Part shown: in pieces, positions 26,887-49,295 of the stretch
How the letters are laid out: every line of letters begins with the position of its first letter
Numbering within the stretch: the first letter of the stretch is position 1
From: an uncultured bacterium
GTDB taxonomy: Bacteria; Eisenbacteria; RBG-16-71-46; CAIMUX01; WJJG01
Assembly: GCA_964654025.1 (NCBI GenBank)
Contig: CAZZIF010000002.1
Span: 883-64,882, forward strand
Length of the DNA: 64,000 nt
Direction: 5' to 3'
Notes under the pieces: model-generated
What the model was told of the DNA's origin: nothing
Databases searched by the model: none
The model's input: only the letters and a program-made list of their open reading frames with translations
Made by a program: the position numbers and the translations under genes

Positions 26887-27211
26887 GAATGCCTCCCGTT
26901 TCCTTCTGCACGTGCAAGAAGTCATGTGATCGACGCACATCACTCTAAGACCACTGCGTGTCACCGGATACCAGGGAGATACTGGCGTGGCGACCGTTCG
27001 TTTCCGTCCTCGTGCGTGGGGGCACTCCCCAGGAGATCCCCGGTGGGATGCGATGCGGTAAGAGTGGATTGCCCGGTGTCCTCGTGAACGGTGATGCGCT
27101 ATTGAATGGAGTATCCGGTAGCCAGATAAGTGCCGCCGACAGGGCGGGTACAATCGATTTGTGGCCGACGAACACAATGGGGTGACGACCTTGAAGCGAC
27201 GCGAGGGACCA

Positions 27212-28795
27212 ATGGTGGAACGACGGATCGCAAAGAAGCGCGGACGAGAGGTCCAGTTGCTGGGCCTGCTTGTCATCGGCAGCCTCGGGCTTCTTGCCGG
27301 ACCAGCCCGAATCGGTGACCTCGGACCTGCGGCGAGTCTGGGGTTCGTGGCCACTGCGCAGACCGCAAACCAGCCAGAGCGCGCCAGCGCAGATCCCAGC
27401 TTGGACCAGCCTCTTGACGAGGTGGCTCCGGATCTGCGCATCCGCAGAAACGTCGAGCGCGCGTTGTCGGCAACCTGGGCGGTTCCCGCTGACAGCATCG
27501 CGACGGCGGTTGCGGATGGAATCGTGACGCTTTCGGGCTCGGTGCCCCATCTGCTGGCCAAGGACCAGGCGACACGGGCGGCCGAGGCCGTGCGTGGGGT
27601 TCGCGCCATCGTGAACCGCGTGGAGGTGCGGCCCCTTGCCCGCAGCGACGCCTTTTTGAGGGAACGGATTTCGAGGGCGTTGGCGGCGGATCCGGTGGTG
27701 GAGGCCGAGGACATCACGGTGGACGTCCTTCACGGTGAGGTCACCCTTTCTGGACCAGTGGGCTCCATAGTGGAGCAGCGCGCGGCGGTCCAGGCGGCCA
27801 AACGAATCGTAGGCGTGCTGGGTGTTCGCAATCTGCTTGACCTGGTCCCCGAACTGGATCGGCCCGATGAACGCATCGAGGAGGAAGTCAAACGCCGCCT
27901 GCGCTACGACGCGCTCGTGGTTGCCGATCGGATCGCGGTCGACGTCGAGGGCGGACATGTTCGTCTGTCGGGTCGGGTGCCCTGTGCTGCAGAGCGTAGG
28001 CGCGCCGAGACGGATGCCTCGGTCCCCGGCGTGCGATCCGTCCATGTAGAAGATCTGGTCGTGGATCCAGACATGGATCGCGCGTTCATGCACCGTGCGG
28101 ATCTGGTTGCCTCAGACTCTCCGAGTCTGGCAGAGGCCCCCAGTGACGAGGAGATCGAGCAGGCGATTGTCGCGTCGCTGTTTCAGGATCCACGGATCGG
28201 TGTGGATTTGATCGAAGTCGAGGTCGACGAAGGCGTCGCCTTTCTGCAGGGACAGGTCGAGCGACCGCGCGAAGTGCGTCTGGCTGAAGAGAACGCACGT
28301 CATACAGTGGGGGTCCTGGCGGTCAGGAATCACTTGAGCGTACGGCCGCCTCAGCGTCCCTCCGACCGGCAGCTCCAGGGCGCCGCCGAGGAAGCGCTCC
28401 AGGCGAATGCCTATGTGAACGGCGACTCGATCGAGGTGGCCGTCCATGGAGGGCTCATCTATCTGTTCGGCACAGTGGCCGATCATGGAACGGTTCGCGA
28501 GGCCATTGAAGTTCTGGAAAGCGTGCCCGGGGCGGTCGCGGTACTCAATAACCTGCGGGTTCTTCGCAACGGATCCGAGATGTCCGACGAAGAGCTGCGC
28601 AAGCGGGTGCAGTGGTTGATCGAGGGGTCGGCGCTGATCAAGGCGGATGAGGTCGTGGTCCTGTCCAATACCGGAACGGTCAGTCTCCGGGGTGATGTTC
28701 AGACCTGGACGGGGCGCGCCGTCGCGGAGGATCTGGCCTACCGGGCGGGTGCGCTCAGCGTCATCAACCGTCTGCAGGTGAGCGGTACCCGGTAA
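27212..28795 (+). CDS. Multi-BON-domain protein (OsmY-like), secreted/periplasmic
   Basis: Six or more BON repeats (pattern I..AL......V.V.V..G.V.LSG.V). N-terminal hydrophobic segment. The start at 27212 is uncertain. Confidence 0.65.
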   Translation: MVERRIAKKRGREVQLLGLLVIGSLGLLAGPARIGDLGPAASLGFVATAQTANQPERASADPSLDQPLDEVAPDLRIRRNVERALSATWAVPADSIATAVADGIVTLSGSVPHLLAKDQATRAAEAVRGVRAIVNRVEVRPLARSDAFLRERISRALAADPVVEAEDITVDVLHGEVTLSGPVGSIVEQRAAVQAAKRIVGVLGVRNLLDLVPELDRPDERIEEEVKRRLRYDALVVADRIAVDVEGGHVRLSGRVPCAAERRRAETDASVPGVRSVHVEDLVVDPDMDRAFMHRADLVASDSPSLAEAPSDEEIEQAIVASLFQDPRIGVDLIEVEVDEGVAFLQGQVERPREVRLAEENARHTVGVLAVRNHLSVRPPQRPSDRQLQGAAEEALQANAYVNGDSIEVAVHGGLIYLFGTVADHGTVREAIEVLESVPGAVAVLNNLRVLRNGSEMSDEELRKRVQWLIEGSALIKADEVVVLSNTGTVSLRGDVQTWTGRAVAEDLAYRAGALSVINRLQVSGTR

Positions 28796-29327: not shown

Positions 29328-29714
29328 ATGACAGAATACCACGAGCCGTTTGATGTTCTGCCCGAAGGTGTGCGGAACATCCACCGGGCCCTGCGGAGCT
29401 TGATCGAAGAGGTGGAGGCCATCGACTGGTATCACCAGCGGGTCGCCGTCACGCAGGATGCGGCCCTGCGGGCGGTCTTGGCTCACAATCGCGACGAAGA
29501 GATCGAACATGCCTGCATGGCGCTGGAATGGCTGCGCCGGAACATGGATGGATGGGATGGAGAGTTGCGTGAGTATCTTTTCACCGACAAGGACATCGTC
29601 GCGACCGAGAGTGCCGGTGACGGCGGTCATGATGGTGAGAGCGCCGAAGCGGCCGATGACGACCGAGCCTCGCAGGATCTAGGCATTGGTGGCCATAGGA
29701 AGGAGAAGGATTGA
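29328..29714 (+). CDS. Encapsulated ferritin-like protein (EncFtn/Flp cargo) with C-terminal targeting peptide
   Basis: HEPFDVLPEGVRNIHRALRSLIEEVEAIDWYHQR...HNRDEEIEHACMALEWLRR matches the EncFtn metal-binding helices. C-terminal DLGIGGHRKEKD resembles the SLGIGSL cargo-loading motif. Confidence 0.75.
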   Translation: MTEYHEPFDVLPEGVRNIHRALRSLIEEVEAIDWYHQRVAVTQDAALRAVLAHNRDEEIEHACMALEWLRRNMDGWDGELREYLFTDKDIVATESAGDGGHDGESAEAADDDRASQDLGIGGHRKEKD

Positions 29715-30511
29715 TGGATCTGCTGAAACGCGCGCAGGCGCCCGTGACCGAGGAAGCCTGGGAACAGATCGAGGAAGAGACGCGGCGGACGCTCAAGGCC
29801 AACCTGTCCGCCCGGTGGCTCATGGACGTGGAAGGACCGCATGGGCCGGAGTTCGCTGCGCTGAACCTGGGCCGGATGGCTGTGCCGGAAAACCAGTCCA
29901 AGGAGGCCGTCCGTTACGGACTTCGGCAGGTCCAGCCGCTGATCGAGCTGCGGGCATCATTTACCCTCGATCAGTGGGAACTCGACAACGCGTCCCGTGG
30001 GGCGGAGGACGTCGATCTCGACCCCGCGGCCGACGCCGCCCGTGAGATGGCTCACTTCGAAGAACGAGCCATCTATGAAGGCTTACCGGAAGCCGGGATT
30101 ACCAGCCTGCGACAGGCCTCGGTGCATTCGGCGATCAAGCTCGGGGCCGAAGGCCTGAAGTATGCCGAGCCGATCAGCAAAGGGCTGGTGACGCTGCGTC
30201 AGGCGGGCATTGATGGCCCGTATGGTCTGGTGCTCGGGCCGAAGCCCTACGAGCGACTTGCTGCGGTCGGCCGGTCTTGCCCGACGATGCAGCACATCGA
30301 GCACTTGATTGGCGGCCCGCTTCTGCTCAGCCCAGTTCTCAAGGGCGGATTCCTGATATCCATGCGGGGAGGGGATTTCCAGCTGGTTCTGGGGCTGGAC
30401 GCATCACTGGGGTGGGAGTCGCACGAGGGCGGTTCGGTGACGCTGTTCTTGACCGAATCGTTCACCTTCCGGACCCTCGAGCCCCGCGCGGTGGTTCCCT
30501 TCGTGGAGTAG
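29714..30511 (+). CDS. Family 1 encapsulin nanocompartment shell protein (HK97-fold)
   Basis: The ATG overlaps the EncFtn stop (TGATG). MDLLKRAQAPVTEEAWEQIEEE...VEGPHG, LIELRASFTLDQWELDN and ERGGDFQLVLG...LTESFTF align along the full length with the Thermotoga maritima encapsulin (MEFLKR..., LIELRATFTLDLWELDN, ERGGDFKLILG..ITETFTF). Confidence 0.85.
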   Translation: MDLLKRAQAPVTEEAWEQIEEETRRTLKANLSARWLMDVEGPHGPEFAALNLGRMAVPENQSKEAVRYGLRQVQPLIELRASFTLDQWELDNASRGAEDVDLDPAADAAREMAHFEERAIYEGLPEAGITSLRQASVHSAIKLGAEGLKYAEPISKGLVTLRQAGIDGPYGLVLGPKPYERLAAVGRSCPTMQHIEHLIGGPLLLSPVLKGGFLISMRGGDFQLVLGLDASLGWESHEGGSVTLFLTESFTFRTLEPRAVVPFVE

Positions 30512-30599
30512 ACCCGGTCCCATGCCGTGACGTGGTCCGCGCTAGTGTCTGCCAGTTCCCGCTGGTCGCCACCAGTCCCCCCAGTCCCCCCAGTCCCCA

Positions 30600-31562
30600 C
30601 TAGTTCCCACCTGTGGAGGTCATATCGGCATGGATGCGTTCGACGTCCGAGCGCCGGCACAGCTCGGTGCCGGGCGTCATCACCGCTGCTGCGCCCGCTG
30701 CGATGCCGAAGCGGACGGCGGAGGACAGATCGTTGCCGCGGGCCAGCCCCAGAACGATGCCGCCTACCATGCTGTCACCCGCGCCCACCTTGCTCTGGAT
30801 CCGGACGGAAGGCGCCCCCATGCGTTCGGCCGCCCGCTCCGTCACGAGTAGCGCGCCCCCGCGTCCCAAGGAGACGACCACCACCACGGCCCGGGCCTCG
30901 CCGATGAGTTCGCGGGCCGCAGCCTCGATGGCCTTCTCATCGCCGAGCTCACGGCCGGCCAGCGCCTCGAGTTCGGCCAAGTTCGGCTTGATCAGATACG
31001 CGCCCTCCGCCAAGGCTTGACGCAAGGGCTCGCCCTTGGTATCGACCACGAAACGCGATCCCGGCGGCAACCCTTGGCTCAAGCGAGCATAGTAGTCGTC
31101 CGGGACGCCGGGCGGGAGACTCCCGCTGGCCACGACATAGCAGGTTTCATTCTCATCGAGTGCCTTCTTGACCTCGCCCAACGTTCCATCGAGCATCCGG
31201 CTGGCTTCCTCGGCCGAAACATCCGCTCCCGGCATCACCAGGCGATACTGTGAGCCACTGGATTCATCGAGCAGATGGATGTTCTCCCTGGTCGTGGCAT
31301 CGAGGGCCACGCGCCGGTGAGAGAGTCCCGCTCCCTCGAGCAGTTGGGCCAGCCGCGCGGCCGTATCCCCTCCGCCGGCCCAGACCGCACGCGCGGTTCC
31401 ACCAAGCTCGTGTACCACCCGGGCCACGTTGATCCCGCCTCCGCCCGGTTGCCGACGAACCGAATGACAGCGGAGCTTCTTCTCGGGAGTGACGTGGGCC
31501 GCCCGGCAACTGCGGTCCAAACTCGCATTGATCGTGCTCGTGACGATGATGGATCTGGGCAT
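30600..31562 (-). CDS. PfkB-family carbohydrate kinase (1-phosphofructokinase/tagatose-6-P kinase-like)
   Basis: AAGGAG RBS. GGKGINVARV-type N-terminal motif (GGGGINVARVV). C-terminal GAGDSMVGG ATP-binding motif. Confidence 0.8.
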   Translation of the reverse strand: MPRSIIVTSTINASLDRSCRAAHVTPEKKLRCHSVRRQPGGGGINVARVVHELGGTARAVWAGGGDTAARLAQLLEGAGLSHRRVALDATTRENIHLLDESSGSQYRLVMPGADVSAEEASRMLDGTLGEVKKALDENETCYVVASGSLPPGVPDDYYARLSQGLPPGSRFVVDTKGEPLRQALAEGAYLIKPNLAELEALAGRELGDEKAIEAAARELIGEARAVVVVVSLGRGGALLVTERAAERMGAPSVRIQSKVGAGDSMVGGIVLGLARGNDLSSAVRFGIAAGAAAVMTPGTELCRRSDVERIHADMTSTGGN

Positions 31563-31851
31563 CGCATTCTCCTTTCAGCGCGACAGTAGCGGGGCCGATG
31601 ACTGGGAGCCGTCGGGCAGTGGCAGGAGGAGGCGCCCGGGAAGGTGCCGGTCTGTGGGGGCGGGGTGGCCCCTAGCCGGCTCGGGGCCACCGTATGGGGA
31701 ATGGCCCCATGGAGATGACCGGGCTTGCCCCAACTGCTTCTCGTCCATCATCGCAAGCATTCGTCGCATCTCCTGTTTACAATCTTATTGAAACAATCAA
31801 AATGGAATCTCCGATATCGATTCCGGAGCCCGCGTCTTTCGGAGCCCCTAC

Positions 31852-33429
31852 ATGTATGACGACATTGGCGAACACCTCAAGCCCGCCGTCCTTTTGATCT
31901 CTGACAGGAGCCGAGCGAGCCGACCGGTCCACTCCGTGCTGGAGCATCGAGGAATCAATATCCACGAGTGCCGGTCCATGCAGGAACTCGTCGAACGGAT
32001 GGCCAGCGGTAGCGGTCCGGTGGTTCTATCGGTGCCCGAACTCAATGCCGAGGACGCCGAGCTTCTTCTCAAGGAGCTGCGATCACAGCCCTACTGGTCG
32101 GACGTTCCCGTGATCTTGCTAGAGTCGGGGGCGACTTCGGTCGTGCCGGAAGAACTACGGAGGCAGCGGGGCACCACATTCCTGAAGCAGCCGATCGAGG
32201 ACGAGGTTCTCACCGGGGTCGTGCAGACCGCGATCGAAACCCGTCTCCGCCAGCTTCAGGTCCGAGATTTGCTGCTTCATCTCGAAGACCTCCATCAGAA
32301 GGCCGCGGTCAGGGCTCGTCATCTCCAGCATCTCTCGATGAAGCTCGCCACGGCTGAACATGACGAGCGCACGCGCATTGCCGGGGTCATCCACGACGAG
32401 TTCCAGCAGCTCCTGGTCGCAGCCCGCATGCGATTGGGGAGCCTTCAGGGGATTCAGGATGGTGGCGGCATGGCCGAGATGGCCGAAGCTTGCCGCGAGG
32501 TCGACGAGCTCTTGCGGGAAGCGATTCAGTCGGCACGTGGCTTGACACGCCAGCTGTCGCCGCCCGTACTGCGTCATGGAGGTTTGAGGGCGGCACTGAG
32601 CTGGTTGATCCAGACGTCGCGGGACCGCCACGATCTTCGCATCGACGCCGAGATCGCCCCGGCGGCGGATGAACTCGACCGGTCGATTCAACTGTTCATG
32701 TTCGAAGCCGCGCGTGAGTTGATCTTCAACGTCGTCAAGCACGCCAATACGCTCCGGGCGAGTCTCGACCTCAAGGTGACCTGTGAGAATGCCCTCCTAT
32801 CGGTCAAGGATGATGGGAGCGGATTCGATCCGAGCATCGTCGGGAACGACGCGGAGGCGCCGCAGGGATTGGGTTTGTTCGGCATTTCCGAGCGCGCGGC
32901 GCTGCTGGGAGGAAACCTGCACGTCCAATCGCATCCTGGAGGTGGGTGCGAAGTCGACCTTGCGATCCCGTTGGCCGTGCAGCCCAAGGTGAGCAAGGGG
33001 ACCTTTGCGACAGCCATCGATCCGGAGTTCGACCCAGGTCAGGAAGATGATTCCAGCGCGGTCGATGGTCGCAAGCGGGTCCTCGTCGTCGATGATCACC
33101 GGATCGTCAGACAGGGCATTGCTTCGATGCTTGCCCACCACGAGGACATCTTGGTCATTGGTGAGGCGTCGGACGGGCAGGAAGCCCTCGAGAAGGCGCG
33201 CGCCCTCAAACCTGATGTCATCCTCATGGACGTATCCATGCCGGGAATGAACGGGATCGACGCCACCCGCGCCATCCGCAACGAGATGGACGAGATTGAC
33301 ATCATCGGCCTGTCCATGTTCGAGATGGAGGAAATCGGACAGCAGATGCTGGATGCGGGCGCGCGATGTTATCTACCGAAGAGCGGTCCCGCGCAGGCGT
33401 TGCTCGAGGAAATCCGCTTTGCACGCTAG
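31852..33429 (+). CDS. Hybrid sensor histidine kinase: N-terminal (pseudo)receiver, HisKA_3 dimerisation/phosphoacceptor, HATPase_c, C-terminal REC domain; no membrane or obvious sensor domain
   Basis: HDERTRIAGVIHDEFQQLL (HisKA_3 H-box, NarX/DosS type). GLGLFGISERAALLGGNL (G2 box). C-terminal RVLVVDDHRIVRQGIASML...DVILMDVSMPGMNGI (REC with D-MP motif). AT-rich promoter-like region upstream (31760-31850). Confidence 0.75.
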   Translation: MYDDIGEHLKPAVLLISDRSRASRPVHSVLEHRGINIHECRSMQELVERMASGSGPVVLSVPELNAEDAELLLKELRSQPYWSDVPVILLESGATSVVPEELRRQRGTTFLKQPIEDEVLTGVVQTAIETRLRQLQVRDLLLHLEDLHQKAAVRARHLQHLSMKLATAEHDERTRIAGVIHDEFQQLLVAARMRLGSLQGIQDGGGMAEMAEACREVDELLREAIQSARGLTRQLSPPVLRHGGLRAALSWLIQTSRDRHDLRIDAEIAPAADELDRSIQLFMFEAARELIFNVVKHANTLRASLDLKVTCENALLSVKDDGSGFDPSIVGNDAEAPQGLGLFGISERAALLGGNLHVQSHPGGGCEVDLAIPLAVQPKVSKGTFATAIDPEFDPGQEDDSSAVDGRKRVLVVDDHRIVRQGIASMLAHHEDILVIGEASDGQEALEKARALKPDVILMDVSMPGMNGIDATRAIRNEMDEIDIIGLSMFEMEEIGQQMLDAGARCYLPKSGPAQALLEEIRFAR

Positions 33430-33480: not shown

Positions 33481-34539
33481 CTAGACGGATGCTTCTTGGC
33501 GCTCATCACGTTGTGCCGAACCGGCGCCGCGCCGGCCCAGCATGTACTTGGCGAGATCGACCACCCGACACACATATCCCCACTCATTGTCGTACCAGGC
33601 GAGGACCTTGACGCTGTGCGAGCCTACCGTCTTGGTGGAAGGGAGGTCCACCAAAGCCGAGTACTCGCTGCCGACGATGTCAGCGGAGACCAGCTCGTCG
33701 CCGGTGGTGCCGAGGACCCCCCGAAGCTTGTCACGGCCCTCTCCCTCGAGAAACACCCGATGAACGGCATCGGTGTCGGTCTCGCGCCTCGTATGCACGA
33801 CAAGATCTACGATGGACCCATCGGCCACCGGCACCCGCATGGCCATCCCATCCATGCGCCCCTCGAGTTGAGGCAGGACATCAGCGATGGCTGTCGCTGC
33901 CCCGGTTGTGGTAGGGATGATCGAAATGGCGGCAGCGCGGCCTCGGCGATGTTTCTTGCTGGGGGAGTCGACCAGCGACTGGGAGTTCGTGTAGGCGTGG
34001 ACCGTCGTCATGAGGCCGCTCTCGATGCCAAAGGCCTCGTCCAAGAGCATGGCGACCGGGGCTAGACAATTGGTTGTGCAGGATCCATTCGAGACGATAT
34101 CGTGTTTCTCGTGATCGTAGATGTCCTCATTGACACCCATGCAAATCGTCGCATCCGGTTTGGGGCTCTTGCCGGGGGCCGTAATGACGACCTTTGTGGC
34201 GCCGGCTTCGAGATGCTGCGCCGCCTCGTCGCGGGTGCGGAAGATGCCGGTAGCTTCCACGACAAACTCCACCTCGAGTTGCGCCCAAGGTAACTCGGTG
34301 GGTTTGGCCTTGTTCAGGTAGGCGATCTTGCGGTCACCCCAATGCAACGTATCGCCCTTCCCATGAATCAGAACTTCAGGGTCAGGATAAATCGAGTCGT
34401 GTTTGCAGAGATAGGCGATTTCTTCAATTCCCGCGATGTCGTTGACGGCCACGACCTCGAGAGACTCTTGCGCCATCATCTGGCGCAGGGTGAGCCGACC
34501 CATGCGACCCATTCCGTTGATGGCAACTCGTGTACTCAC
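33481..34539 (-). CDS. gap: Type I glyceraldehyde-3-phosphate dehydrogenase
   Basis: GTG start at 34539 with an AGGGAGGA RBS 5 nt upstream, giving MSTRVAINGMGRMGR. NAD motif. SCTTNCLAP catalytic Cys. Confidence 0.85.
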   Translation of the reverse strand: MSTRVAINGMGRMGRLTLRQMMAQESLEVVAVNDIAGIEEIAYLCKHDSIYPDPEVLIHGKGDTLHWGDRKIAYLNKAKPTELPWAQLEVEFVVEATGIFRTRDEAAQHLEAGATKVVITAPGKSPKPDATICMGVNEDIYDHEKHDIVSNGSCTTNCLAPVAMLLDEAFGIESGLMTTVHAYTNSQSLVDSPSKKHRRGRAAAISIIPTTTGAATAIADVLPQLEGRMDGMAMRVPVADGSIVDLVVHTRRETDTDAVHRVFLEGEGRDKLRGVLGTTGDELVSADIVGSEYSALVDLPSTKTVGSHSVKVLAWYDNEWGYVCRVVDLAKYMLGRRGAGSAQRDERQEASV

Positions 34540-34877
34540 ATCGTCCTCCCTTGCGATGGATGGCGTACGATTGCGATCCATTCAGCCAATGTCTTGGGAC
34601 CGTAGATACCGATGGGCTCACGTTCCATCGGGCGATCGGTCGCACGCGCTTGGAGGCAATGGCCCTTGGGCGACTGGGGATGTTTCCGAGAGTCCGCCTG
34701 GAACAGGCACGATGGGGTGGTCTCCCCACGACGCATTGGCGGAAGAACCCACGCCGCAACGGCAGTCGACCGGGTGGGGTGGCGACGCGTCGGGTGATAA
34801 ACAGATTCTAGACAATCGTTGGCGGCCACGGACAACGAACGATGGAGAAGCAAATCCGCCCACCTGGAGGTTGACCA

Positions 34878-36068
34878 ATGACCATCATGGATCCAATTCC
34901 GGACCGAGAGGGTGTTCTCGATCTATTGCGCGACTCGGGCTGGCCGCGCCTGTCGATCTACATGCCGACCGGCCGACCCGGGTCGGAAGCGCAGAAGAAC
35001 CAGATTCGGTTCAAGAACCGCATCCAGGAGGCCGCTGGCGGCCTCATTGCCGGCGGCATGAGAACTCGCCAAGTCCAAGACTTCCTGGCGCCGATCCGCG
35101 CCATGATCGACGATCAGCGATTCTGGCGGTATCAGGCCGACGGTCTGTGCATGTTTCAAAGCCCGAACTCACTGCGCTACTTCCGTCTGCCGCGAAGAGT
35201 GCCCGAGTTGACCGTGGTTTCGAAGAGCTACCACATCAAGCCTCTCCTCCCGCTCTGGAGCGATCAGATGCGTTGCTACCTCCTGTCGGTGGACCTTCGC
35301 GAGGTCGATCTGTTCGAGGTCGATGCTCTTGGATTGCGGCAGGTCCAATCGAACGACGATCTGCCCGAGGGCATCGAGGAGTTCCGACCCGATGAAGGCG
35401 ACAATGGGGGCCTGCAATGGCACACCGGAGGGGAGGGTGAGCGTGCCACGGCGGGCACGCCCGGCGAAACCGGCCCCATCTACCATGGTCATGGTCGCGG
35501 CAAGGATGCCTCACTCGAGAAGGAACGCATCTTGGCCTACCTGCGAGAGGTCGAAGACGTGGTCACCCGGCGGGTGGCCGGCTCCGAGGTCCCGCTCATT
35601 CTAGCGGGCGTGGAGTATCTTCTCCCTCTATATCGAGAGGCGAATCACTATCCGCACGTGCTGCCGGCGGATCTGCCGGTCAATACCCGCGAGATGAGCG
35701 AGGACGATCTTCATCAGGAAGTCTTGAGGCTCATGCAACCACTTCAAGAGCAGCGGCGTGATGAGCTCCTCGAGCGCTACCGGACGATGCGACCACGGCA
35801 GCGAACCTCTCGTGGCATCAAGGATGTCCTGGTGGCCGCCACAGCCGGCAGGGTGGATACGCTCTGGGCTCAGGGAGAGGCCTACTGCTGGGGACGATAC
35901 GATCCCGCGACCACCCAGGTAGACATCCACGCACGTCAGCATCCATACGATGAGGACCTGGTCAACACGGCGGCGGTTGAGGCGCTCAAGACCCAGGCGC
36001 AGGTGCTATTGGCCGAACCGGAGCAGATGCCGGAAGAGGGCAAGGTGGCAGCTCTGCTGCGCTATTAG
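34878..36068 (+). CDS. Bacterial archaeo-eukaryotic release-factor-like (baeRF/Rv2629-like) family protein, putative
   Basis: N-terminal LDLLRDSGWPRLSIYMPT, then LCMFQSPNSLRYFRLP and CYLLSVDLREVDLFEV. These resemble the conserved N-terminal blocks of eRF1-like bacterial families (M. tuberculosis Rv2629 type). The call rests on pattern recognition only. Confidence 0.45.
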   Translation: MTIMDPIPDREGVLDLLRDSGWPRLSIYMPTGRPGSEAQKNQIRFKNRIQEAAGGLIAGGMRTRQVQDFLAPIRAMIDDQRFWRYQADGLCMFQSPNSLRYFRLPRRVPELTVVSKSYHIKPLLPLWSDQMRCYLLSVDLREVDLFEVDALGLRQVQSNDDLPEGIEEFRPDEGDNGGLQWHTGGEGERATAGTPGETGPIYHGHGRGKDASLEKERILAYLREVEDVVTRRVAGSEVPLILAGVEYLLPLYREANHYPHVLPADLPVNTREMSEDDLHQEVLRLMQPLQEQRRDELLERYRTMRPRQRTSRGIKDVLVAATAGRVDTLWAQGEAYCWGRYDPATTQVDIHARQHPYDEDLVNTAAVEALKTQAQVLLAEPEQMPEEGKVAALLRY

Positions 36069-36127
36069 CTCCGCTATTAGCTGCGCTACCAGCCGCGCTA
36101 CTCGCTGCCCACTAACTGTTCCGCCGG

Positions 36128-36439
36128 CTACTCCCAAGGCGCGGTGCGCTGCCGCGTCGCACCACGCAAGTGGGTGCGAAGCACGTTCTCTTCCCGAGGA
36201 TCGCCGACCACATGGAAGAGCTGGTCGGCGACATGGATGTCGGCTACGATCGTGCGCGTCGTATCCTTCGCCGGCGGCGATCGAAAGAGAATGCGTACCG
36301 GAGCCGAGGCGAGCGCGTCGGCTTCCAGCGAAGCCGACATCTCTTCATTGACGGGCAATCCGTCCGCGTCCACGACATCGAATCCCACTGTGCGTACCGA
36401 GTTCAGCAGCTCGATGAACTCCATGTTGGTTTCGGTCAT
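36128..36439 (-). CDS. Hypothetical small protein (103 aa)
   Basis: AAGGGGGA RBS 4-5 nt upstream of the ATG at 36439. No recognisable family. Confidence 0.35.
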   Translation of the reverse strand: MTETNMEFIELLNSVRTVGFDVVDADGLPVNEEMSASLEADALASAPVRILFRSPPAKDTTRTIVADIHVADQLFHVVGDPREENVLRTHLRGATRQRTAPWE

Positions 36440-36467
36440 CTAGTCCCCCTTCGAGTGCTGGATGGTG

Positions 36468-36836
36468 CTATGCGAGCCCCTCTAAGACCCATTGACGGGC
36501 GGCTTGCTTCTCGTCCATGTCATACCGTCGGCTTTCCGTGCCCGCCAGTGGCTGGACGAGCTGCGAAAGGTCTGGAAGCCAGTTCTGTTCGCTGACGACG
36601 GCGAGCCGCTCGATTTCACCGTAGTGGCGCAGCTCCAGTTTGAGTTCCTCCCAGAAGGCGCTGGCGGACCAGCCTTGGAAGTCATGCAGTTCCAACAAGA
36701 CACGGATGCGACCGTATCGCTTCACGAGGCGGCTGATCTGCGCTGCCAGGTGATCCAGGTCGGGCTTGGCGAGCTTTCCGTAGACGTGGATGCGCAGGAC
36801 CCGTCCGTGATTGAGTTCCTTCATCCAGAGGCTCAT
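36468..36836 (-). CDS. STAS/SpoIIAA-like domain protein
   Basis: GGGAGGG RBS before the ATG at 36836. LRIHVYGKLAKPDLDHLAAQISRLVKRYGRIRVLLELHDFQGW follows the STAS_2 (SpoIIAA-like) pattern. Confidence 0.5.
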   Translation of the reverse strand: MSLWMKELNHGRVLRIHVYGKLAKPDLDHLAAQISRLVKRYGRIRVLLELHDFQGWSASAFWEELKLELRHYGEIERLAVVSEQNWLPDLSQLVQPLAGTESRRYDMDEKQAARQWVLEGLA

Positions 36837-37054
36837 GGGTGTTCCCTCCCTCTCTTGCCGTGACGCACCTTGTCCCATCCGGGTGGGCACAGTCCCAAAG
36901 GCGAGGTCAGTCTAGAACGGCGGAGGAAGAGGGCAAATGGGAGCTGTTCTGAGGGCAGCGTGGGAGGGCTCCCGATATTCCGCGCCAGAGTGTGCTTCGT
37001 AGGCTGTGCATGAAGTTCAGGCCGCATGTGCATCGCCCTCCGATGCAACACGAT

Positions 37055-37110
37055 GGCCCCATGACGGTGGCCCGATGATGACGGCCCCATCACGATGGCT
37101 CCATGAAAGC
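37055..37110. repeat. ~15-bp degenerate tandem repeat (GATGGCCCCATSACG) x3 immediately upstream of ppsA
   Basis: Direct reading. Confidence 0.6.
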
Positions 37111-37123
37111 ACACGGAGCAGAT

Positions 37124-39559
37124 ATGCAGAAGAGCGAGGCAACCATGACCTCTACGAAGCAAGGCGGGAAGTCTCGTCGCCGGGAAGAAAGCTACGTTCG
37201 TTGGCTCCAGGACCTGAGCAATGACGACGTCGAACAAGTGGGCGGCAAGAACGCATCGCTTGGCGAGATGCTGCGGTCCTTGAAGAAAGAAGGCGTGCGG
37301 GTGCCGAACGGCTTCGCCACCACGGCGCACGCCTATCGAGAGTTCCTGACACACAACGACCTGGAGGAGGAGATTCGGTCACGGCTCGAGGGACTGGCTC
37401 CGGACGAGTCGGATCTCGTGAAGGTGGCGCGTGGGGTCCGCCGACTCTTCTCGCGTGCCGAGTTTCCGCAAGCAGTGCGTTCGGCCATCGAGCAAGCCTA
37501 CCAGGAGCTGTCAGAAACCTACGATACCAGCGATGTCGATGTCGCCGTTCGCAGCAGCGCCACCGCGGAGGATTTGCCTGAGGCGAGCTTCGCGGGACAG
37601 CAAGAGACCTACTTGAACGTCTCCGGAGCGGAGGATCTTCTCGATGCCTGCCGGGACTGCTACGCCTCCCTGTTCACCGCCCGGGCGATCGCCTACCGCG
37701 CCGAAAAAGGCTTCGATCACCTCGAGGTAGCCCTATCGGTGGGCGTGCAGAAGATGGTCCGGGCCGACCGCGCGGGGGCCGGCGTGATGTTCTCGATCGA
37801 CACCGAGACCGGCTTTCCGGATGTGGTCGTGATCAACGCGGCCTGGGGCCTCGGCGAAAACGTGGTTCAAGGAGCGATCACGCCGGACGAGTACCGCGTC
37901 TTCAAGCCCCCGCTGGAAGAAGACGGATTTGTGCCGATCATCGAGAAGAGCCTTGGAGAGAAGCAGAAGAAGATCATCTATGCGAGCGGCAACGGCCAGA
38001 CGATCAAGAATGTCGACACGCCCAAGAAGGAGCGACGCTCGTTTGTCCTCACGAATGAAGACATCCTCACCCTGGCGCGCTGGGCAGTCGCCGTCGAGAA
38101 GCACTATCAGAAGCCGATGGACATGGAGTGGGCCAAGGACGGGGACTCGGGCGATCTCTACATGGTGCAAGCCCGTCCCGAGACGGTTCAGTCGCAGCGG
38201 ACCGGACAGGCACTCAGCACCTACCGGCTCAAGGAACGAGGCGAGGTGCTCGTCACCGGACTGGCGATTGGGGAAGCGATTGCCGCCGGAAAGGTGTCGA
38301 ACATCGGCAACCCGCACGAGGCGGAGGGTTTCGAGGATGGCAGCATTCTGGTTACCGAGATGACCGATCCGGACTGGGTGCCCGTCATGAAGCGCGCCGC
38401 GGGGATCATTACCGACCATGGGGGGCGGACGAGCCATGCCGCCATTGTCAGCCGCGAGCTCGGTCTGCCAGCGCTGGTCGGATGCGAGAACGCGACCGAG
38501 CGGCTGGCTGACGATGACGAGGTCACGCTGTCGTGCGCAGAGGGGGAACGAGGCAAGGTGTTTCGCGGGAAGCTCGACTTCGAGGTCGAGGAACTCGACC
38601 TGTCCGACCTCCCGGAGGTGGGCCCGCGGATCATGATGAACATCGCCAGTCCCGCCGCGGCCTTGCGCTGGTGGCGCCTGCCGGCCAAGGGCGTGGGCCT
38701 GGCTCGCATGGAGTTCATCATCAACAACGTGATCAAGGCGCACCCGATGGCATTGCTGCACTACGACGAGCTCGAGGACAAACAAGCACGCCGGGACATT
38801 GCGGAGCTGACGAGCGCCTATGACGATCGTGGGGAGTACTTCATCGACAACCTCGCGCGCGGCATCGCCCGGCTGGCGGCTTCACAGTATCCCGAGCCCG
38901 TGATTGTGAGAATGAGCGATTTCAAGTCGAATGAGTACGCCGATCTGATCGGAGGGAAGCAGTTCGAACCCGACGAGGAGAATCCCATGTTGGGCCTGAG
39001 GGGTGCCGCACGGTACTACAGCGAGCAGTACCGCGAGGGATTCGCTCTGGAATGCCGGGCCATTCGCCGGGTACGTGAGGAGATCGGTCTGCGAAACGTA
39101 GTCATCATGATCCCTTTCTGCCGCACGCCGGAGGAAGCCGATCGCGTCCTCGAGGTCCTGGCCGAGAACGGACTCGAGCGGGGCAAGGACGGCCTCGAGA
39201 TTTACGTCATGATCGAGATCCCGTCGAACGTCGTGCTGGCCGAGGAGTTTGCCGAACGTTTCGACGGCTTCTCGATCGGCAGCAACGATCTCACGCAGCT
39301 CATCCTGGGCGTCGACCGAGACTCGGCTGCTCTCAGGGAGCTCTTCGACGAACGCCATCCGGCGGTCAAACGGTCCATCGCCGATCTCATCGAGCGTGCC
39401 CACCGAAAGGGCACTAAGGTCGGCATCTGCGGGCAAGCGCCCAGTGACCATCCGGGATTCGCCAGGTTCCTGGTGGAGTCGGGCATCGATTCGATCTCGT
39501 TGAATCCCGACAGCGTCGTGTCGGTGATCCGGGAAGTGGCCGAACTCGAAGGCAGGTAG
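37124..39559 (+). CDS. ppsA: Phosphoenolpyruvate synthase (pyruvate, water dikinase)
   Basis: VGGKNASLGEM ATP-grasp motif, phosphohistidine domain, PEP-utilising C-terminal domain. Start uncertain among the ATGs at 37103, 37124 and 37145. Confidence 0.85.
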   Translation: MQKSEATMTSTKQGGKSRRREESYVRWLQDLSNDDVEQVGGKNASLGEMLRSLKKEGVRVPNGFATTAHAYREFLTHNDLEEEIRSRLEGLAPDESDLVKVARGVRRLFSRAEFPQAVRSAIEQAYQELSETYDTSDVDVAVRSSATAEDLPEASFAGQQETYLNVSGAEDLLDACRDCYASLFTARAIAYRAEKGFDHLEVALSVGVQKMVRADRAGAGVMFSIDTETGFPDVVVINAAWGLGENVVQGAITPDEYRVFKPPLEEDGFVPIIEKSLGEKQKKIIYASGNGQTIKNVDTPKKERRSFVLTNEDILTLARWAVAVEKHYQKPMDMEWAKDGDSGDLYMVQARPETVQSQRTGQALSTYRLKERGEVLVTGLAIGEAIAAGKVSNIGNPHEAEGFEDGSILVTEMTDPDWVPVMKRAAGIITDHGGRTSHAAIVSRELGLPALVGCENATERLADDDEVTLSCAEGERGKVFRGKLDFEVEELDLSDLPEVGPRIMMNIASPAAALRWWRLPAKGVGLARMEFIINNVIKAHPMALLHYDELEDKQARRDIAELTSAYDDRGEYFIDNLARGIARLAASQYPEPVIVRMSDFKSNEYADLIGGKQFEPDEENPMLGLRGAARYYSEQYREGFALECRAIRRVREEIGLRNVVIMIPFCRTPEEADRVLEVLAENGLERGKDGLEIYVMIEIPSNVVLAEEFAERFDGFSIGSNDLTQLILGVDRDSAALRELFDERHPAVKRSIADLIERAHRKGTKVGICGQAPSDHPGFARFLVESGIDSISLNPDSVVSVIREVAELEGR

Positions 39560-39636
39560 CCCAGGTGAGTCGCGATCTCATCGATCCGATCGCTCGAAGA
39601 GACACTCTTAGAGAAACTCAAGGAAAGGGGGCCATC

Positions 39637-41169
39637 ATGCAGCTTCACTGCATTGCCAATTGGATATATCACCGAACCGTCGTCTTGACGGTCGCCACGC
39701 TGTTGCTGGCGCTTGCGGGGGCAGCTGGACCGGCTCGTGCGGAGCCGGCATTGACCGATCAGCAAATCACCGATGCGATCGAAGACGAGCTGGCGTATGA
39801 CAAAGCGGTGCCGCTCAATGACATCGATGTTCGCACCACCAACGGGATTGCCGCACTGAGCGGGACGGTTAGCACCCTCCTTGCCAAGGAACGCGCCGCG
39901 CAGCTAGCCGAAACCGTCAAGGGCGTACGATCCGTCGTCAATACGATCGATGTCAAGCCGTACTGGGGTCGCATGGATTGGGAGATCGAGTCCGACGTCG
40001 ACCAAGCCTTGGTCGGCGATCCGGCAACCGAATCCTGGGAGATCGCTGCCGAAGTGCAGAACAAGACGGTCTATCTGTCCGGAACCGTGGATTCGTGGCA
40101 CGAACGGGAATTGGCGGAACGCGTAGCCAAAGGGATCCGCGGAGTCGCGGCCGTCGAGAATGATCTAAGCATTTCGTATGACGAGGAACGTACGGACGCC
40201 GAGATTCGAGCTGAGGTCGAGCACGCTTTGCGCTGGGACGGCCTGGTCGATCACTCCCTGATCGAGGTGGACGTGTCGGCGGGCGAAGTCGAGCTGAGCG
40301 GTAAGGTCGGCAGCGCGGCCGAGAAGCGGCGGGCCGAACGTGATGCGTGGGTCTATGGCACTGAATCGGTCGAGGCCGAGGCGCTCACGGTCGATCCGGC
40401 CGTTCATGATGAAGCCCAGCGCGAACGCGAATACGTCGTGAAGTCCGAGGAGGAGGTTCGTGAGGCCATCAAGGATGCCCTCGTCTATGACCCTCGGGTC
40501 TACTCCTTTGACGTCGATGTCGATGTGACCGGCAGTGCCGTGACCTTGCGCGGGCGAGTCGACAACATGAAGGCCAAGCGGGCGGCGGCTCAGGTGGCAC
40601 GCCGGACGTGGGGAGTAGCGGCCGTCACCAATCGGATTCGCGTGCGCCCCGCAGCGGTTGAGGACACCGAGGTTGCCCGGGACATCGGCAACGCCATCGC
40701 CCGTGACCCTTACATTGAGCGCTACGAAATCGACGTTGATGTCACGAATGGCACGGCCCGGCTCTCCGGAACGGTCGACTCCTACTTCGAGAAGGCCCGA
40801 GCCGAGGATATTGCCGTCCGGACCAACGGGGTGTCCGAGGTGCGCAACGGTCTCGAGGTCGACTACCCGGAATCGTGGATTGCCTATGATCCGTATGTCT
40901 ACGATTACTATCCGTATGATTACACATGGTATGACTACGCGCCCTACGTGACGTTCAGGTCCGATCGCGAGATTCGGCAGGACATTGAAAACGAGTTCTG
41001 GTGGAGCCCTTTCGTCGACGGCGATGATGTGACCGTCACGGTCGAGGACGGCGTAGCGACATTGACCGGAGAGGTGGACAGCTGGTCTGAACGACTCGAC
41101 GCCACCGAGAACGCGTTCGAGGGTGGTGCGGTCTGGGTCGACAATAACCTGATGGTGGAATCGCGGTGA
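39637..41169 (+). CDS. Multi-BON-domain protein (second paralog), secreted
   Basis: AAGGGGG RBS. Signal peptide MQLHCIANWIYHRTVVLTVATLLLALAGAAGPARA. About 7 BON repeats. Probably co-transcribed with ppsA (the gap is under 80 bp). Confidence 0.7.
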   Translation: MQLHCIANWIYHRTVVLTVATLLLALAGAAGPARAEPALTDQQITDAIEDELAYDKAVPLNDIDVRTTNGIAALSGTVSTLLAKERAAQLAETVKGVRSVVNTIDVKPYWGRMDWEIESDVDQALVGDPATESWEIAAEVQNKTVYLSGTVDSWHERELAERVAKGIRGVAAVENDLSISYDEERTDAEIRAEVEHALRWDGLVDHSLIEVDVSAGEVELSGKVGSAAEKRRAERDAWVYGTESVEAEALTVDPAVHDEAQREREYVVKSEEEVREAIKDALVYDPRVYSFDVDVDVTGSAVTLRGRVDNMKAKRAAAQVARRTWGVAAVTNRIRVRPAAVEDTEVARDIGNAIARDPYIERYEIDVDVTNGTARLSGTVDSYFEKARAEDIAVRTNGVSEVRNGLEVDYPESWIAYDPYVYDYYPYDYTWYDYAPYVTFRSDREIRQDIENEFWWSPFVDGDDVTVTVEDGVATLTGEVDSWSERLDATENAFEGGAVWVDNNLMVESR

Positions 41170-41271: not shown

Positions 41272-41781
41272 TCAGCCGAGAACTCGTAGCGCAGCGTCGA
41301 TGAACTCTGGAAGGTCATGCGGATTCCGGCTCGAAATCATGTTGCGATCGCGGACCACCGGCTGGTCCTTGACGATCGCACCTGCATTCTCCATGTCCTT
41401 CCGGATGGATGTATATCCAGTCACCGTTCGGCCGTTCAGCACATCAGCGGTAATCAAGAGCTGCGGAGCGTGGCAAATCAGGAAGACAGGCTTGTCGGCC
41501 TCCACGAACTCCCGCACGAAGGAGACGACCGGTTCATGAACCCGGAGCCGATCCGGTGAGTAGCCTCCGGGAATGAACAGGGCATCGTATTCGGTTGGAT
41601 CTGCGTCGGCGATGTTCAGATCGATCAGAACCGATTCTTGATTTCGCTTCCCGATGACTTTATCACCGGTCTTGAGTCCGATGTGGGTCAATGTGTGACC
41701 CGCCTCTCGGAAGCTGTTGGCGGGGCGGGTGTATTCAGAGTCTTCGAAGAGATGGTCGACAAGTACGGCGATAGTGGCCAT
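41272..41781 (-). CDS. DJ-1/PfpI family protein (class I glutamine amidotransferase-like; deglycase/protease)
   Basis: AGGAGG RBS 6 nt before the ATG at 41781. AIVKD...FLICHAPQLL nucleophile-elbow Cys and DALFIPGG motif. Confidence 0.8.
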   Translation of the reverse strand: MATIAVLVDHLFEDSEYTRPANSFREAGHTLTHIGLKTGDKVIGKRNQESVLIDLNIADADPTEYDALFIPGGYSPDRLRVHEPVVSFVREFVEADKPVFLICHAPQLLITADVLNGRTVTGYTSIRKDMENAGAIVKDQPVVRDRNMISSRNPHDLPEFIDAALRVLG

Positions 41782-41815
41782 GCGTGTCCTCCTGGTTCTG
41801 GTTCCACGGCGGCTA

Positions 41816-42217
41816 TCAGGCCACCGGCAAGGCCAGAGGCTTCGATGACTGCCACAGGCCGTGGATGTTGCAAAGACTGGTAGCAAAAAGCGTCCCCGGC
41901 TTGTCGGTCTTGAATGATACCTGGACCTCGTGATGCGTGTAGACCCCGCTCGTATCGGGACCGTCCACGGATTCGCCATGTGCCTGGAATGCCGTGTGGG
42001 CGATTTCATAGGGGAACGGAGCATCCTCGGGATGGAAGTACACCTTGATCCACCGAATGTGATGAGCGGTCTCGTTCGGATGCGCGACTTCTTTCCCAAG
42101 GGTGACCGTGATCGGGAAGTACTGCCCCTTCTCTACTTCCTCCGGTACTTCTATCACCGGCACGTGTTTCTCGGTCTTCCAGTCATCGGTTTGATAGAGC
42201 TTGCAGATGTCTGCCAT
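41816..42217 (-). CDS. Superoxide reductase (desulfoferrodoxin ferrous-iron-binding domain)
   Basis: KHVPVIEV, HHIRWI and CNIHGLWQS (the SOR iron ligands His/His/Cys/His). GGAGGAGG RBS. Confidence 0.8.
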   Translation of the reverse strand: MADICKLYQTDDWKTEKHVPVIEVPEEVEKGQYFPITVTLGKEVAHPNETAHHIRWIKVYFHPEDAPFPYEIAHTAFQAHGESVDGPDTSGVYTHHEVQVSFKTDKPGTLFATSLCNIHGLWQSSKPLALPVA

Positions 42218-42658
42218 GGGCTGGCCTCCTCCATGTCGTCTGTGTGTACTGCTCGGGTGAACCGCCTATTGCACGGAGCACCGGGTATTCGCACTGGTGG
42301 CAATCCGGGCCTGCCGGGGTGGGAGGGGCGGAACGGGAGTGATGGTGCACAGGGATCGAGTACTCCCGTTCCACCCCATGGGTTGGGGGATGAGCGTAGC
42401 AGAAGCGTAGGGCGTGCGGCCGGCGTGCGGAGCCAAACAGCCGCACGATCTACGAAACTACTTGATCGTGACGATGCTTCGATCGCGCGACCCCGCTTTC
42501 TTCATCGTGACCGCCCTTCTATGCCTATCGATGTCTTGCGCTTGGCGGCAGTATCCTCGATGGAGAATGCCGCTCGCCATCGGGGAACAGCCGGTCAGGG
42601 CTTCGGGTAGATCGCCAGGTCGGACCAGGGGTTGATTCCGTCTCTGGTGTGACGCGAG

Positions 42659-43816
42659 CTAGGCCGCTAGACCTCGTGGCAGCTCTGCGTCGCCCTCCAG
42701 GTCCAGCTTCACGGAGAGGAAGCGCAACAGGTCCTTCAACGCCAGCATCCCGAGCAACTTGTCACCCTCGGCGACGATCAGGCGGCCGGCTTGGTTACGG
42801 TTCATCTTCTCGAGTGCCTTGACCGCATCGGTGTGGGGCGCGATCGTATTGCTGTCCGAACAGGGTTGCGCCGCATCTCCAACCCGATAGCGACTCCACT
42901 CCTCGCGGGGGATCTCCTTGACGTTCCGGGTTGTGATGCAACCGACCAGACGTTCCTGATCCACTACCGGATATAGTTTGTAGTGATGGCGGTAGACGTA
43001 GTCCTCCACGAACTCTCCAATCGAAAGGGACGAGGATACGGACACGGGAGACCCTTTCATGAAGCGGCGTACCTCCTCGCCCTGCAATGCAATACGAATC
43101 AAGAGCTGCTGGTAGCTGTTCTTGGCGACCGAGCGGATGAAGAATCCGATCAGGATCCACCACAATCCCCCGATTGGGTTCATGAACAGCAGGTTGACTA
43201 CACCCAAGCCCACGAGCAATAGCCCGAAGCCGGCCCCAACGCGAGAGGCGATGCGGGTCGCCTCCCGTAGGTTGCCCTTCTTCTTCCAAATCAGGGCACG
43301 GAGCACCCGGCCTCCGTCGAGGGGATAGCCGGGAATCATATTGAAGACGACCAGCACACCATTGATGTATCCGATCCAGCGCAGCACGGCGGTCACCGGT
43401 TGGGACCATCCCCATGAGGTCCCGAGGGTGGCCAGCCCCAGGAAGACGCCCAGGACGAGGACACTGGCCAAGGGCCCGGCGATGGCCATCTTCAGCTCGG
43501 CCATCGCGCTAGGGGGTTCGTCAGACATCTCCGCCACCCCACCAAACAAAAACAGCGTGATGCCCTTCATGGGAAGGCCCGATCCGCGGGCCACCAAGGA
43601 GTGGGACATCTCATGGAAGACGATCGATAGGAACAAGCCGGCCGCGGCGGCCAGCCCCATGAGTCCATACTGCCACCCGCTCAGTCCTTCGACCTGCTGC
43701 GGAAACACTCCACCGGCCAGCGACCAGACAACGAGCGCGAGGATCAGAAGCCAGCTGAGATCAATGCGCACGGCGAAGTCGAACAGTGTGAATAGCGTGT
43801 ATCGCTTACCGAACAT
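42659..43816 (-). CDS. Site-2-protease-family M50 zinc metalloprotease with C-terminal CBS pair
   Basis: AGGAGG RBS before the ATG at 43816. HEMSHSLVAR (HExxH) with GGVAEM. Multiple TM helices. The C-terminus has 2 CBS domains (VSVSSSLSIGEFVEDY..., LVGCITTRNV...). Confidence 0.8.
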   Translation of the reverse strand: MFGKRYTLFTLFDFAVRIDLSWLLILALVVWSLAGGVFPQQVEGLSGWQYGLMGLAAAAGLFLSIVFHEMSHSLVARGSGLPMKGITLFLFGGVAEMSDEPPSAMAELKMAIAGPLASVLVLGVFLGLATLGTSWGWSQPVTAVLRWIGYINGVLVVFNMIPGYPLDGGRVLRALIWKKKGNLREATRIASRVGAGFGLLLVGLGVVNLLFMNPIGGLWWILIGFFIRSVAKNSYQQLLIRIALQGEEVRRFMKGSPVSVSSSLSIGEFVEDYVYRHHYKLYPVVDQERLVGCITTRNVKEIPREEWSRYRVGDAAQPCSDSNTIAPHTDAVKALEKMNRNQAGRLIVAEGDKLLGMLALKDLLRFLSVKLDLEGDAELPRGLAA

Positions 43817-44257
43817 GGGCGACCTCCTAGACTGGCCTCCTGGGCTGTCCTCTTGGCGGTGGTGAGTTGCGGACTCGCATACACAATCACGCACCGTGAG
43901 TGTCAGGAGCAACCGGGCGGCCTCCCGGCTGGCGTCTAGGATCTGGCCCGAGGGCAACCAGGTTCGAGAAGTGTGATGGTGGGGAGACGTCCTCGTGAAG
44001 TCGTTGGCGGTGGGGAAGTCCCGTGCCATGGGGGATTCCCCGAAATTTCCGTGTGCGGGTTGCTAAGTGCTGTAGTTTAGGCGCATTCATTGGCACCTCG
44101 CTTAGCTGTTCTTGGTTTGTTTGCAGTCACCGGCTATACTGCGGGCACTGACCAAGAGCATGGGCCGGGCGAGGCTGAGGGGTGTTCTGAGCAATGCGTT
44201 ATCAGATCCGGTAGACGTTCTTCAGCTCTTGCGGACTGCTCGGTAGGGGAGGAAAGC

Positions 44258-49283: not shown

Positions 49284-49295
49284 GATGGGACCCCC

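Follow-up and report, generated by a model that had tools for sequence, protein, structure and literature searches.

A divergent Balon-family protein, candidate ribosome hibernation factor, in a stress-gene region of an uncultured bacterium

What might a bacterium do with a protein built on the plan of the class-I release factor aeRF1? The question is raised by a gene of 396 codons at 34878..36068 (+) in a stretch of 64,000 nucleotides (nt) from contig CAZZIF010000002.1 of an uncultured bacterium of the Eisenbacteria; this whole stretch is called the window below, and positions refer to it unless another locus is named. The original prediction, made from the letters and their open reading frames (ORFs), took the 396-amino acid (aa) product for a bacterial eRF1-like (baeRF) protein of the Rv2629 type, from poorly characterised families implicated in ribosome rescue or translational conflict, and pointed to two adjacent genes, one for a SpoIIAA-like STAS protein and one for a protein of 103 aa. 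Our comparison assigns the protein by its sequence to the Balon family in the broad sense, where it is part of a separate subfamily, and it probably acts as a non-catalytic factor that occupies the ribosomal A site during hibernation.

The baeRF-1 clade was defined by Burroughs and Aravind (PMC6514570), who described that most of its families have lost the catalytic glutamine, that the Pelota-like domain bears an insert of two strands and that gene neighbourhoods link the clade to the hibernation promoting factor (HPF), and predicted from these features a group of non-catalytic A-site blockers. According to the same authors, a glutamine remains conserved in a few baeRF-1 families, possibly hydrolases, and variable loop length and lineage-specific insertions go with the inactive families. 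The description of the family as poorly characterised became outdated in 2024, when Rv2629, Msmeg1130 and Balon of Psychrobacter were shown to be hibernation factors that sit in the A site of vacant ribosomes; Psychrobacter Balon was found in that of translating ribosomes as well (Helena-Bueno et al. 2024; PMC10901736). All three are devoid of NIKS and GGQ; the N domain sends an extended loop, which in Balon carries an HP motif, to the decoding centre, where it makes no contact with the mRNA, a lasso loop and bL27 trap are found at the peptidyl-transferase centre, and the C domain, which bears a beta-hairpin, faces EF-Tu (PMC10901736). Homologues occur in ~20% of bacteria, usually encoded among stress genes such as RaiA, OsmC, OsmY, Hsp20 and RtcB (PMC10901736), and chimeric HPFs (HPF-Csp) are often encoded near Balon genes (bioRxiv 10.1101/2025.11.04.686544). 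A Synechocystis homologue was observed on native hibernating ribosomes, where it contacts the peptidyl-transferase centre, extensively, and the decoding centre via residues unlike those of Psychrobacter Balon; neither a contact with EF-Tu nor binding to translating ribosomes was seen (bioRxiv 10.64898/2026.07.03.736309). The four Balon homologues with ribosome-bound structures are all non-catalytic hibernation factors (PMC10901736; bioRxiv 10.64898/2026.07.03.736309).

Family identity, fold and motifs

The gene calls agree with the three ORFs of the original prediction, and the peptide blocks LSIYMPT, LCMFQSPNSLRYFRLP and LLSVDLREVDLFEV quoted there are all found in the translation of the 396-aa gene. 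Its start ATG at 34878 is preceded at a distance of 7 nt by a Shine-Dalgarno sequence, GGAGG (34866..34870, +), and the same site is kept in two relatives, L004 and L001, whose proteins are 94% and 79% identical to that of the window. Measured against these two, the ratio of nonsynonymous to synonymous substitution rates (dN/dS) amounts to 0.10 both for the Balon homologue and for the 103-aa gene and to 0.05 for the STAS gene, and all three are under purifying selection far beyond chance. In the other frames of the 103-aa gene the ratio ranges from 0.22 to 4.8, the constraint being confined to its own frame. A paralogue search uncovered no second copy, and the 396-aa gene is the only Balon-type gene in the window.

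Homology to the baeRF proteins is evident from profile searches. Two Pfam families score above their gathering thresholds, baeRF_family3 (PF18845; E 5.6e-33, residues 134-325, 115.1 bits against a threshold of 31.5) and baeRF_family7 (PF18849; E 3.1e-32, residues 134-288, 112.2 bits against 27.2); their scores are almost equal, and the choice between the two is ambiguous. Weaker matches concern baeRF families 6, 8 and 11. The NCBIfam model NF052287, which describes the AOC03_06830-family ribosome hibernation factor, matches the protein over its full length (residues 20-396, 3.7e-31, 108.9 bits). The models of the Rv2629 family (NF052289, 26.3 bits) and of the MSMEG_1130 family (NF052288, 17.9 bits) stay below their cut-offs of 320 and 480 bits. 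By sequence the protein is thus nearer to the Psychrobacter type than to Rv2629, and of its original assignment to the Rv2629 type one part stands, as it is of the same baeRF kind that includes Rv2629, and the closer kinship does not. When the single protein was compared with the PDB by phmmer, Psychrobacter Balon was the sole match (8rd8_B, E 1.1e-5). With a subfamily profile of 44 homologues the same structure was matched over residues 2-369 (4.8e-39); the match to Msmeg1130 covered the N-terminal half only and was no better than 1.4e-6.

The AlphaFold2 model, built on the alignment of this profile, is confident across the three domains (pLDDT 84.8, pTM 0.77) with the exception of loop 174-207, and the three-domain aeRF1-like architecture within 360-420 aa is present. 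Foldseek ranked Balon, Msmeg1130 and Rv2629 as the best matches of the predicted fold, followed by aRF1, eRF1 and Pelota. The baeRF identity put forward from the letters alone is therefore borne out by both comparisons that had been proposed for it: family profiles gave significant matches, and the fold is of the Balon/eRF1 type and not an unrelated one. We place the protein in a separate subfamily because it reaches the equivalog cut-off of neither NF052287 nor NF052289 and because two loop motifs, LQ(F/W)HT and F/Y-H-G-(H/Q)-G, set it apart from the characterised members.

The motifs by which release factors read stop codons and release peptides are missing. A motif scan detected neither GGQ nor NIKS nor NIKL in the 396-aa protein, and neither NIKS nor NIKL in any of the 120 relatives scanned. 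Lacking GGQ and any NIKS-type motif, the protein does not qualify as a class-I release factor of the aeRF1 type, and its structural similarity to aeRF1 is far lower than to Balon. The GGQ-like loop that the original prediction proposed to look for turned out to hold F-H-G-(H/Q)-G instead, at the topological site of GGQ.

Three regions correspond to the ribosome-facing parts of Balon. In the N domain, residues 30-42 (PTGRPGSEAQKNQ; 34965..35003, +) align without gaps to the HP-motif decoding-centre loop of Balon (KTHREHPANDQDP); the two loops are of the same length, the subfamily consensus is PTHRxGxExQQDP, and model confidence is lower there. The middle domain carries a long flexible loop, residues 170-207 (35385..35498, +), where, topologically, aeRF1 has its GGQ loop and Balon its lasso loop. 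Its residues 174-207, with pLDDT below 50, directly precede a long helix (208-233), and the loop contains LQWHT, YHGHG and a lineage-specific insertion of four residues at 189-192. The sequence Y-H-G-H-G (residues 202-206; 35481..35495, +) represents in the window protein the subfamily motif, F-H-G-(H/Q)-G, which in the alignment of 120 relatives shows F202 in 100, H203 in 108, G204 in 119 and G206 in 109, position 205 being H in 63 and Q in 48. LQ(F/W)HT is the second subfamily motif of the loop and is missing from Psychrobacter Balon, whose sequence in this alignment was transcribed from a printed HMMER alignment. Counted back from the helix, the register of the loop differs between the window protein and typical subfamily members, and because of this inconsistency we claim no residue-level equivalence with GGQ. 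One relative with 79% identity (P0002) carries a chance GGQ in this loop, reading WHTGGQGER where the window has WHTGGEGER, at a site unconserved in the subfamily. In the C-terminal, Pelota-like domain, a beta-hairpin at residues 338-350 (35889..35927, +; model strands 338-342 and 347-350) includes W338-G339, conserved in 118 and in all 120 of the relatives, respectively. The region is ungapped relative to Balon, and the hairpin corresponds to the two-strand insert of baeRF-1 (PMC6514570) and to the EF-Tu-side beta-hairpin of Balon. Most of the subfamily-invariant residues are retained in the window protein.

Uncultured bacteria are the source of the closest relatives (94% and 79% identity), beyond which identity drops to ~40% or less. 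The subfamily comprises hundreds of proteins in Anaerolineae (Chloroflexota), Desulfobacterota, cyanobacteria, KSB1, Acidobacteriota, Planctomycetota and others. The window protein is present in public collections, unnamed; members of this large subfamily are still labelled hypothetical or 'baeRF7 domain-containing' by automated annotation. The 396-aa gene adds an ordinary, unannotated member to a family that is known and widespread, and with the role of Balon established in 2024 and homologues in about one-fifth of bacteria, the locus in itself carries little weight.

Proposed role on the ribosome

The reading that we prefer, as probable though not beyond doubt, is that of a non-catalytic A-site hibernation factor. 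The protein would be a three-domain bacterial descendant of aeRF1 that has lost both stop-codon reading (NIKS) and peptide release (GGQ). Under stress it would enter the A site of 70S ribosomes, by analogy with the complexes of Balon, Msmeg1130 and Rv2629. Its N domain would contact the decoding centre clear of the mRNA channel, the middle-domain loop would lie against the peptidyl-transferase centre, and the C domain would be directed toward the factor-binding site, the place taken by EF-Tu in Psychrobacter. Translation would be blocked and the ribosome protected until conditions improve. It is homology to the known factors that suggests ribosome binding, a partnership with EF-Tu and induction by stress.

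The gene lies among stress-response genes, as Balon genes usually do. The window encodes an encapsulin, DJ-1/PfpI, OsmC, an M50-CBS protease, PfkB, PEP synthase and glyceraldehyde-3-phosphate dehydrogenase (GAPDH), together with signalling proteins (a HisKA_3 hybrid kinase, and a two-component system of the NarL type with its regulator at 44090-44920) and trehalose genes (GH65 with trehalose phosphatase, TreZ and a MalQ-amylase fusion). A chimera of HPF/RaiA (Ribosomal_S30AE) with a C-terminal cold-shock domain is encoded at 17696-18427 (-), with a probable start at ~18253; read from the internal Met, it aligns from end to end (E 4.9e-34) with PDB 9t0z_9, a 183-aa 'Ribosome hibernation promoting factor'. 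The window thus holds a second hibernation factor, 16 kb upstream of the Balon homologue. To survey relatives, ORFs were called and neighbours clustered in 83 subfamily loci. Two-component proteins were found near subfamily members in 18 of these, PfkB kinase in 7, the Na/H exchanger in 6, and USP, GAPDH and BrkB in 5 each; PEP synthase, P-type ATPase, M50-CBS protease, HPF/S30AE and DJ-1 followed with 4 loci each. Recurrence near relatives therefore includes USP, HPF, PfkB and M50-CBS, and GAPDH accompanies subfamily members in L009, L017, L019 and L028.

Several observations weigh against a role copied from Balon. Identity to the characterised Balon proteins is only 15-18%, and the 108.9 bits obtained with NF052287 are far below its equivalog cut-off of 330. 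In the decoding-centre loop, the H-P dipeptide of Balon is G-S in the window protein, and the subfamily residue His32, present in 88 of 120 relatives, is Gly. The loop on the side of the peptidyl-transferase centre is ~20 residues longer than in Psychrobacter Balon and carries F-H-G-(H/Q)-G, absent there, so that contacts near the catalytic centre may differ. Finally, RaiA, the stress-operon neighbour of Balon, is not adjacent to the gene, the HPF chimera being 16 kb off.

The longer loop invites a bolder proposal, which we regard as rather unlikely: the subfamily might be a mechanistically distinct Balon branch in which the conserved LQFHT...F-H-G-(H/Q)-G loop, placed where GGQ used to be, engages the peptidyl-transferase centre or the CCA end of tRNA in a way unseen in Psychrobacter or mycobacterial Balon. 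Some chemistry, for instance peptidyl-tRNA hydrolysis, might even be preserved, and in this lineage the STAS and small proteins might modulate the Balon homologue. Whatever its role, F-H-G-(H/Q)-G is a strongly conserved loop motif absent from the best-studied Balon and marks residues worth attention.

Taken further, the same loop could belong to a catalytically active rescue or release factor, in which F-H-G-(H/Q)-G extends to the peptidyl-transferase centre and stimulates peptidyl-tRNA hydrolysis on stalled ribosomes. Although the motif lies directly before the long middle-domain helix, in the place of GGQ in aeRF1, it holds no GGQ tripeptide, and hhalign against human eRF1 gave no register for it, aligning only residues 80-141 at a probability of 1.1%. 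G204 is nearly invariant, and Gln is found at position 205 in many relatives (48 of 120, with His in 63), which recalls the few baeRF-1 families with a conserved glutamine that might be hydrolases (PMC6514570); the window protein itself has His there, the loop varies in length within the subfamily and has lineage-specific insertions in the window protein, and such a pattern is that of the inactive families (PMC6514570). The extensive contacts of the Synechocystis homologue with the peptidyl-transferase centre, made via residues unlike those of Psychrobacter Balon (bioRxiv 10.64898/2026.07.03.736309), could also be cited in favour of activity, yet all four ribosome-bound Balon homologues are non-catalytic. 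An active factor is in our opinion improbable, and the hibernation factor stays the preferred reading.

Neighbouring genes and non-coding sequence

Downstream of the Balon homologue, the opposite strand carries two genes separated by 28 bp and convergent with it, the stop codons of the 396-aa and 103-aa genes being 59 bp apart. This adjacency had been noted in the original prediction and agrees with the ORF list. The first gene of the unit encodes the STAS-fold protein; its ORF was called at 36468-36890 (-), and the start supported by a ribosome-binding site (RBS), ATG 36836, gives a protein of 122 aa (36468..36836, -) that belongs to the SpoIIAA-like family PF11964 (Pfam E 1.5e-23). The second gene encodes the 103-aa protein (36128..36439, -). 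Both genes have the strong RBSs ascribed to them, at normal spacing: GGGAGGG, 8 nt before the ATG of the STAS gene, and AGGGGG, 5 nt before that of the small gene.

The nearest solved structures to the 122-aa protein, 2ook and 2q3l, are uncharacterised structural-genomics proteins. The 103-aa protein matched nothing in Pfam, NCBIfam or PADLOC; its model is poor (pLDDT 57.8) and yielded no Foldseek match below E 1. It has syntenic relatives at 91% and 83% identity, and only ~17 distant homologues, small proteins of 89-138 aa to which Pfam assigns no family, came out of an exhaustive HMMER scan of 1.8 billion representative proteins. Three large repeat proteins among the matches (P0143, P0147 and P0149) were rejected as repeat artefacts with unrelated Pfam content. 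The three homologues with readable context are located beside Hsp20 and Lon, near a LuxR-type regulator and beside a CBS protein. With a dN/dS of 0.10 in its own frame, the 103-aa gene is real and represents a rare, unnamed family.

One could suppose that the three genes form a system in which the eRF1-like protein is controlled by the STAS and small proteins, through partner switching for instance, or in which the trio serves as a translational conflict or defence module. The three genes do stay together, all under purifying selection, in the window and in L001, L002 and L004, where Balon identity is 79-94%; in the 79 more distant loci the small gene is always missing and the STAS gene is missing from 78, while in the remaining one, L079, 3.7 kb separate a PF11964 gene from the Balon homologue. 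The distant 103-aa homologues with readable context are never beside Balon or STAS genes. The STAS unit is not co-transcribed with the Balon gene, since it is convergent on the opposite strand, and no SpoIIAB/RsbW-type kinase or PP2C phosphatase domain was detected among the called ORFs of the window that were scanned. PADLOC-DB gave no match for any of the three proteins at E 0.01 or better, so that the suggested link to translational conflict finds no echo in known defence systems, and the locus is chromosomal, as LigA, PolX and ATP synthase lie nearby. A three-gene system is hence less probable still than an active factor. We treat the STAS and 103-aa genes as most likely an independent, lineage-specific unit, because neither accompanies Balon homologues outside the immediate lineage; the pair is possibly stress-related. 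Least probable of all, and very improbable, is a decaying or functionless baeRF paralogue, a notion that could draw on the divergence of the lineage (identity falls from 79% to ~40%), the loss of His32 and the extra loop insertions, and that is contradicted by a dN/dS of 0.10 across three genomes, an intact ORF with a strong RBS, a model confident over three domains and the conservation of most subfamily-invariant residues.

Upstream, the hibernation factor candidate is divergent from gap, as originally described. This gene (33481..34581, -) encodes a type I GAPDH (Pfam Gp_dh_N and Gp_dh_C; TIGR01534 at 390 bits, above the cut-off) and is separated from the 396-aa gene by ~296 bp. In L004, all that is left of the divergent GAPDH gene is a short piece of its C-terminal part, after which comes a long (CT)n microsatellite (2981-3160 of that locus); this reflects either recent gene loss or mis-assembly. 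Alignment of the window with L004 and L001 reveals a single well-conserved stretch in the gap-Balon intergenic region, a block of ~55 nt at 34733..34785 (+), ~95-145 nt upstream of the Balon start, the rest being divergent. It occurs once in the window and is followed ~15 nt downstream, in all three sequences, by a TGATA(A/T) element; such conservation makes a promoter or operator region possible. As to an RNA element upstream of the Balon gene, no Rfam match was obtained at the gathering threshold or at E <= 1, and the 181-nt leader shows no better folding than shuffles do (z 0.40), so that the idea was rejected. The DosR-type operator GGGACNNNNGTCCC was likewise rejected: with <=2 mismatches it has 29 matches in the window against 66 expected, none of them in the relevant intergenic regions. 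No sigma-70 promoter or intrinsic terminator was detected in a scan of 34400-37300, which includes the 59-bp convergent gap, and a search for shared regulatory motifs found that the conserved upstream words occur once in the window or no more often than chance predicts.

Two tandem repeats border these genes. One, a 12-nt unit (GCTGCGCTATTA, 4.4 copies; Tandem Repeats Finder score 64) at 36056..36108 (+), spans the stop codon of the Balon homologue and reiterates its last codons, LLRY-stop, downstream; it is partly shared with L004 and absent from L001. The other, a 14-nt unit (ACGATGGCCCCATG, 4.1 copies) at 37050-37106, is located between the divergent genes for STAS and PEP synthase, directly adjoining the called start of the latter. 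It includes a perfect palindrome, CCATCACGATGG, at 37087-37098 and is possibly a regulator-binding array. The palindrome CCATCNNGATGG of this repeat is only weakly enriched in the window and mostly intragenic.

Several families of the window are also found in the mycobacterial DosR regulon that includes Rv2629 (PMC5309233). They are encoded at 41272-49493 and 29711-33429 and include the M50-CBS protease beside a NarL/LuxR-type regulator, GH65 with trehalose-phosphatase/HAD, PfkB and the HisKA_3 kinase. The GH65-plus-trehalose-phosphatase arrangement is presumably like that of Rv2006/OtsB1. This dormancy-type island, in an unrelated uncultured bacterium, parallels the DosR families and supports the view of a gene set that travels together. 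Flanking the Balon region, two paralogous OsmY-like proteins of ~540 aa with six BON domains each (27161-28795, + and 39565-41169, +) share 34% identity. Further away, 18522-25988 holds a TreZ-like gene (Alpha-amylase, CBM48, DUF3459) and then a gene for a 1770-aa protein with MalQ N-terminal, 4-alpha-glucanotransferase and alpha-amylase domains, probably a cluster for trehalose or glycogen remodelling. At 50189-57461, an ATP-synthase set with a fused b-delta subunit, followed by alpha, gamma and c subunits, is interspersed with two Pfam-less ORFs and has, in addition, a protein of the alpha/beta family, encoded separately, whose C-terminal domain is of the V/A type. With these unusual features the set is possibly a second ATPase operon of non-canonical type.

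Comparison with known systems

The neighbour of the Balon homologue has its counterpart in PF11964, with the uncharacterised structures 2OOK and 2Q3L; the 122-aa protein matches this family end to end and 2ook at 1.2e-6. It belongs there and not to the canonical STAS family, and PF11964 has no established function.

The 396-aa protein itself can be set against the factors that share its fold. The release factors aeRF1, aRF1 and eRF1 carry NIKS and GGQ, whereas the window protein has neither and has a two-strand insert in its C domain. It is also a bacterial protein that coexists with RF1/RF2-type termination, unlike aeRF1. Pelota/Dom34 resembles it much less than Balon does, and the loop by which Pelota probes the mRNA channel is missing from Balon-type proteins, a feature of the family (PMC10901736). 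Msmeg_1130 and Rv2629, the Balon homologues of mycobacteria in the DosR hypoxia regulon (PDB 8V9J, 8V9K and 8V9L), show weak sequence similarity to the window protein and have larger insertions in the C domain. Balon of Psychrobacter urativorans (AOC03_06830; PDB 8RD8, 8RDV and 8RDW) is 18% identical to it and differs in the two places described above, with H-P instead of G-S in the N-domain loop and a shorter loop facing the peptidyl-transferase centre that is devoid of both LQ(F/W)HT and F/Y-H-G-(H/Q)-G. Cyanobacterial proteins belong to the subfamily of the window protein; the Synechocystis homologue (PDB pdb_000031TX) may be one of them. That its ribosomal contacts are unlike those of Psychrobacter Balon fits with the subfamily-specific motifs of the window protein.

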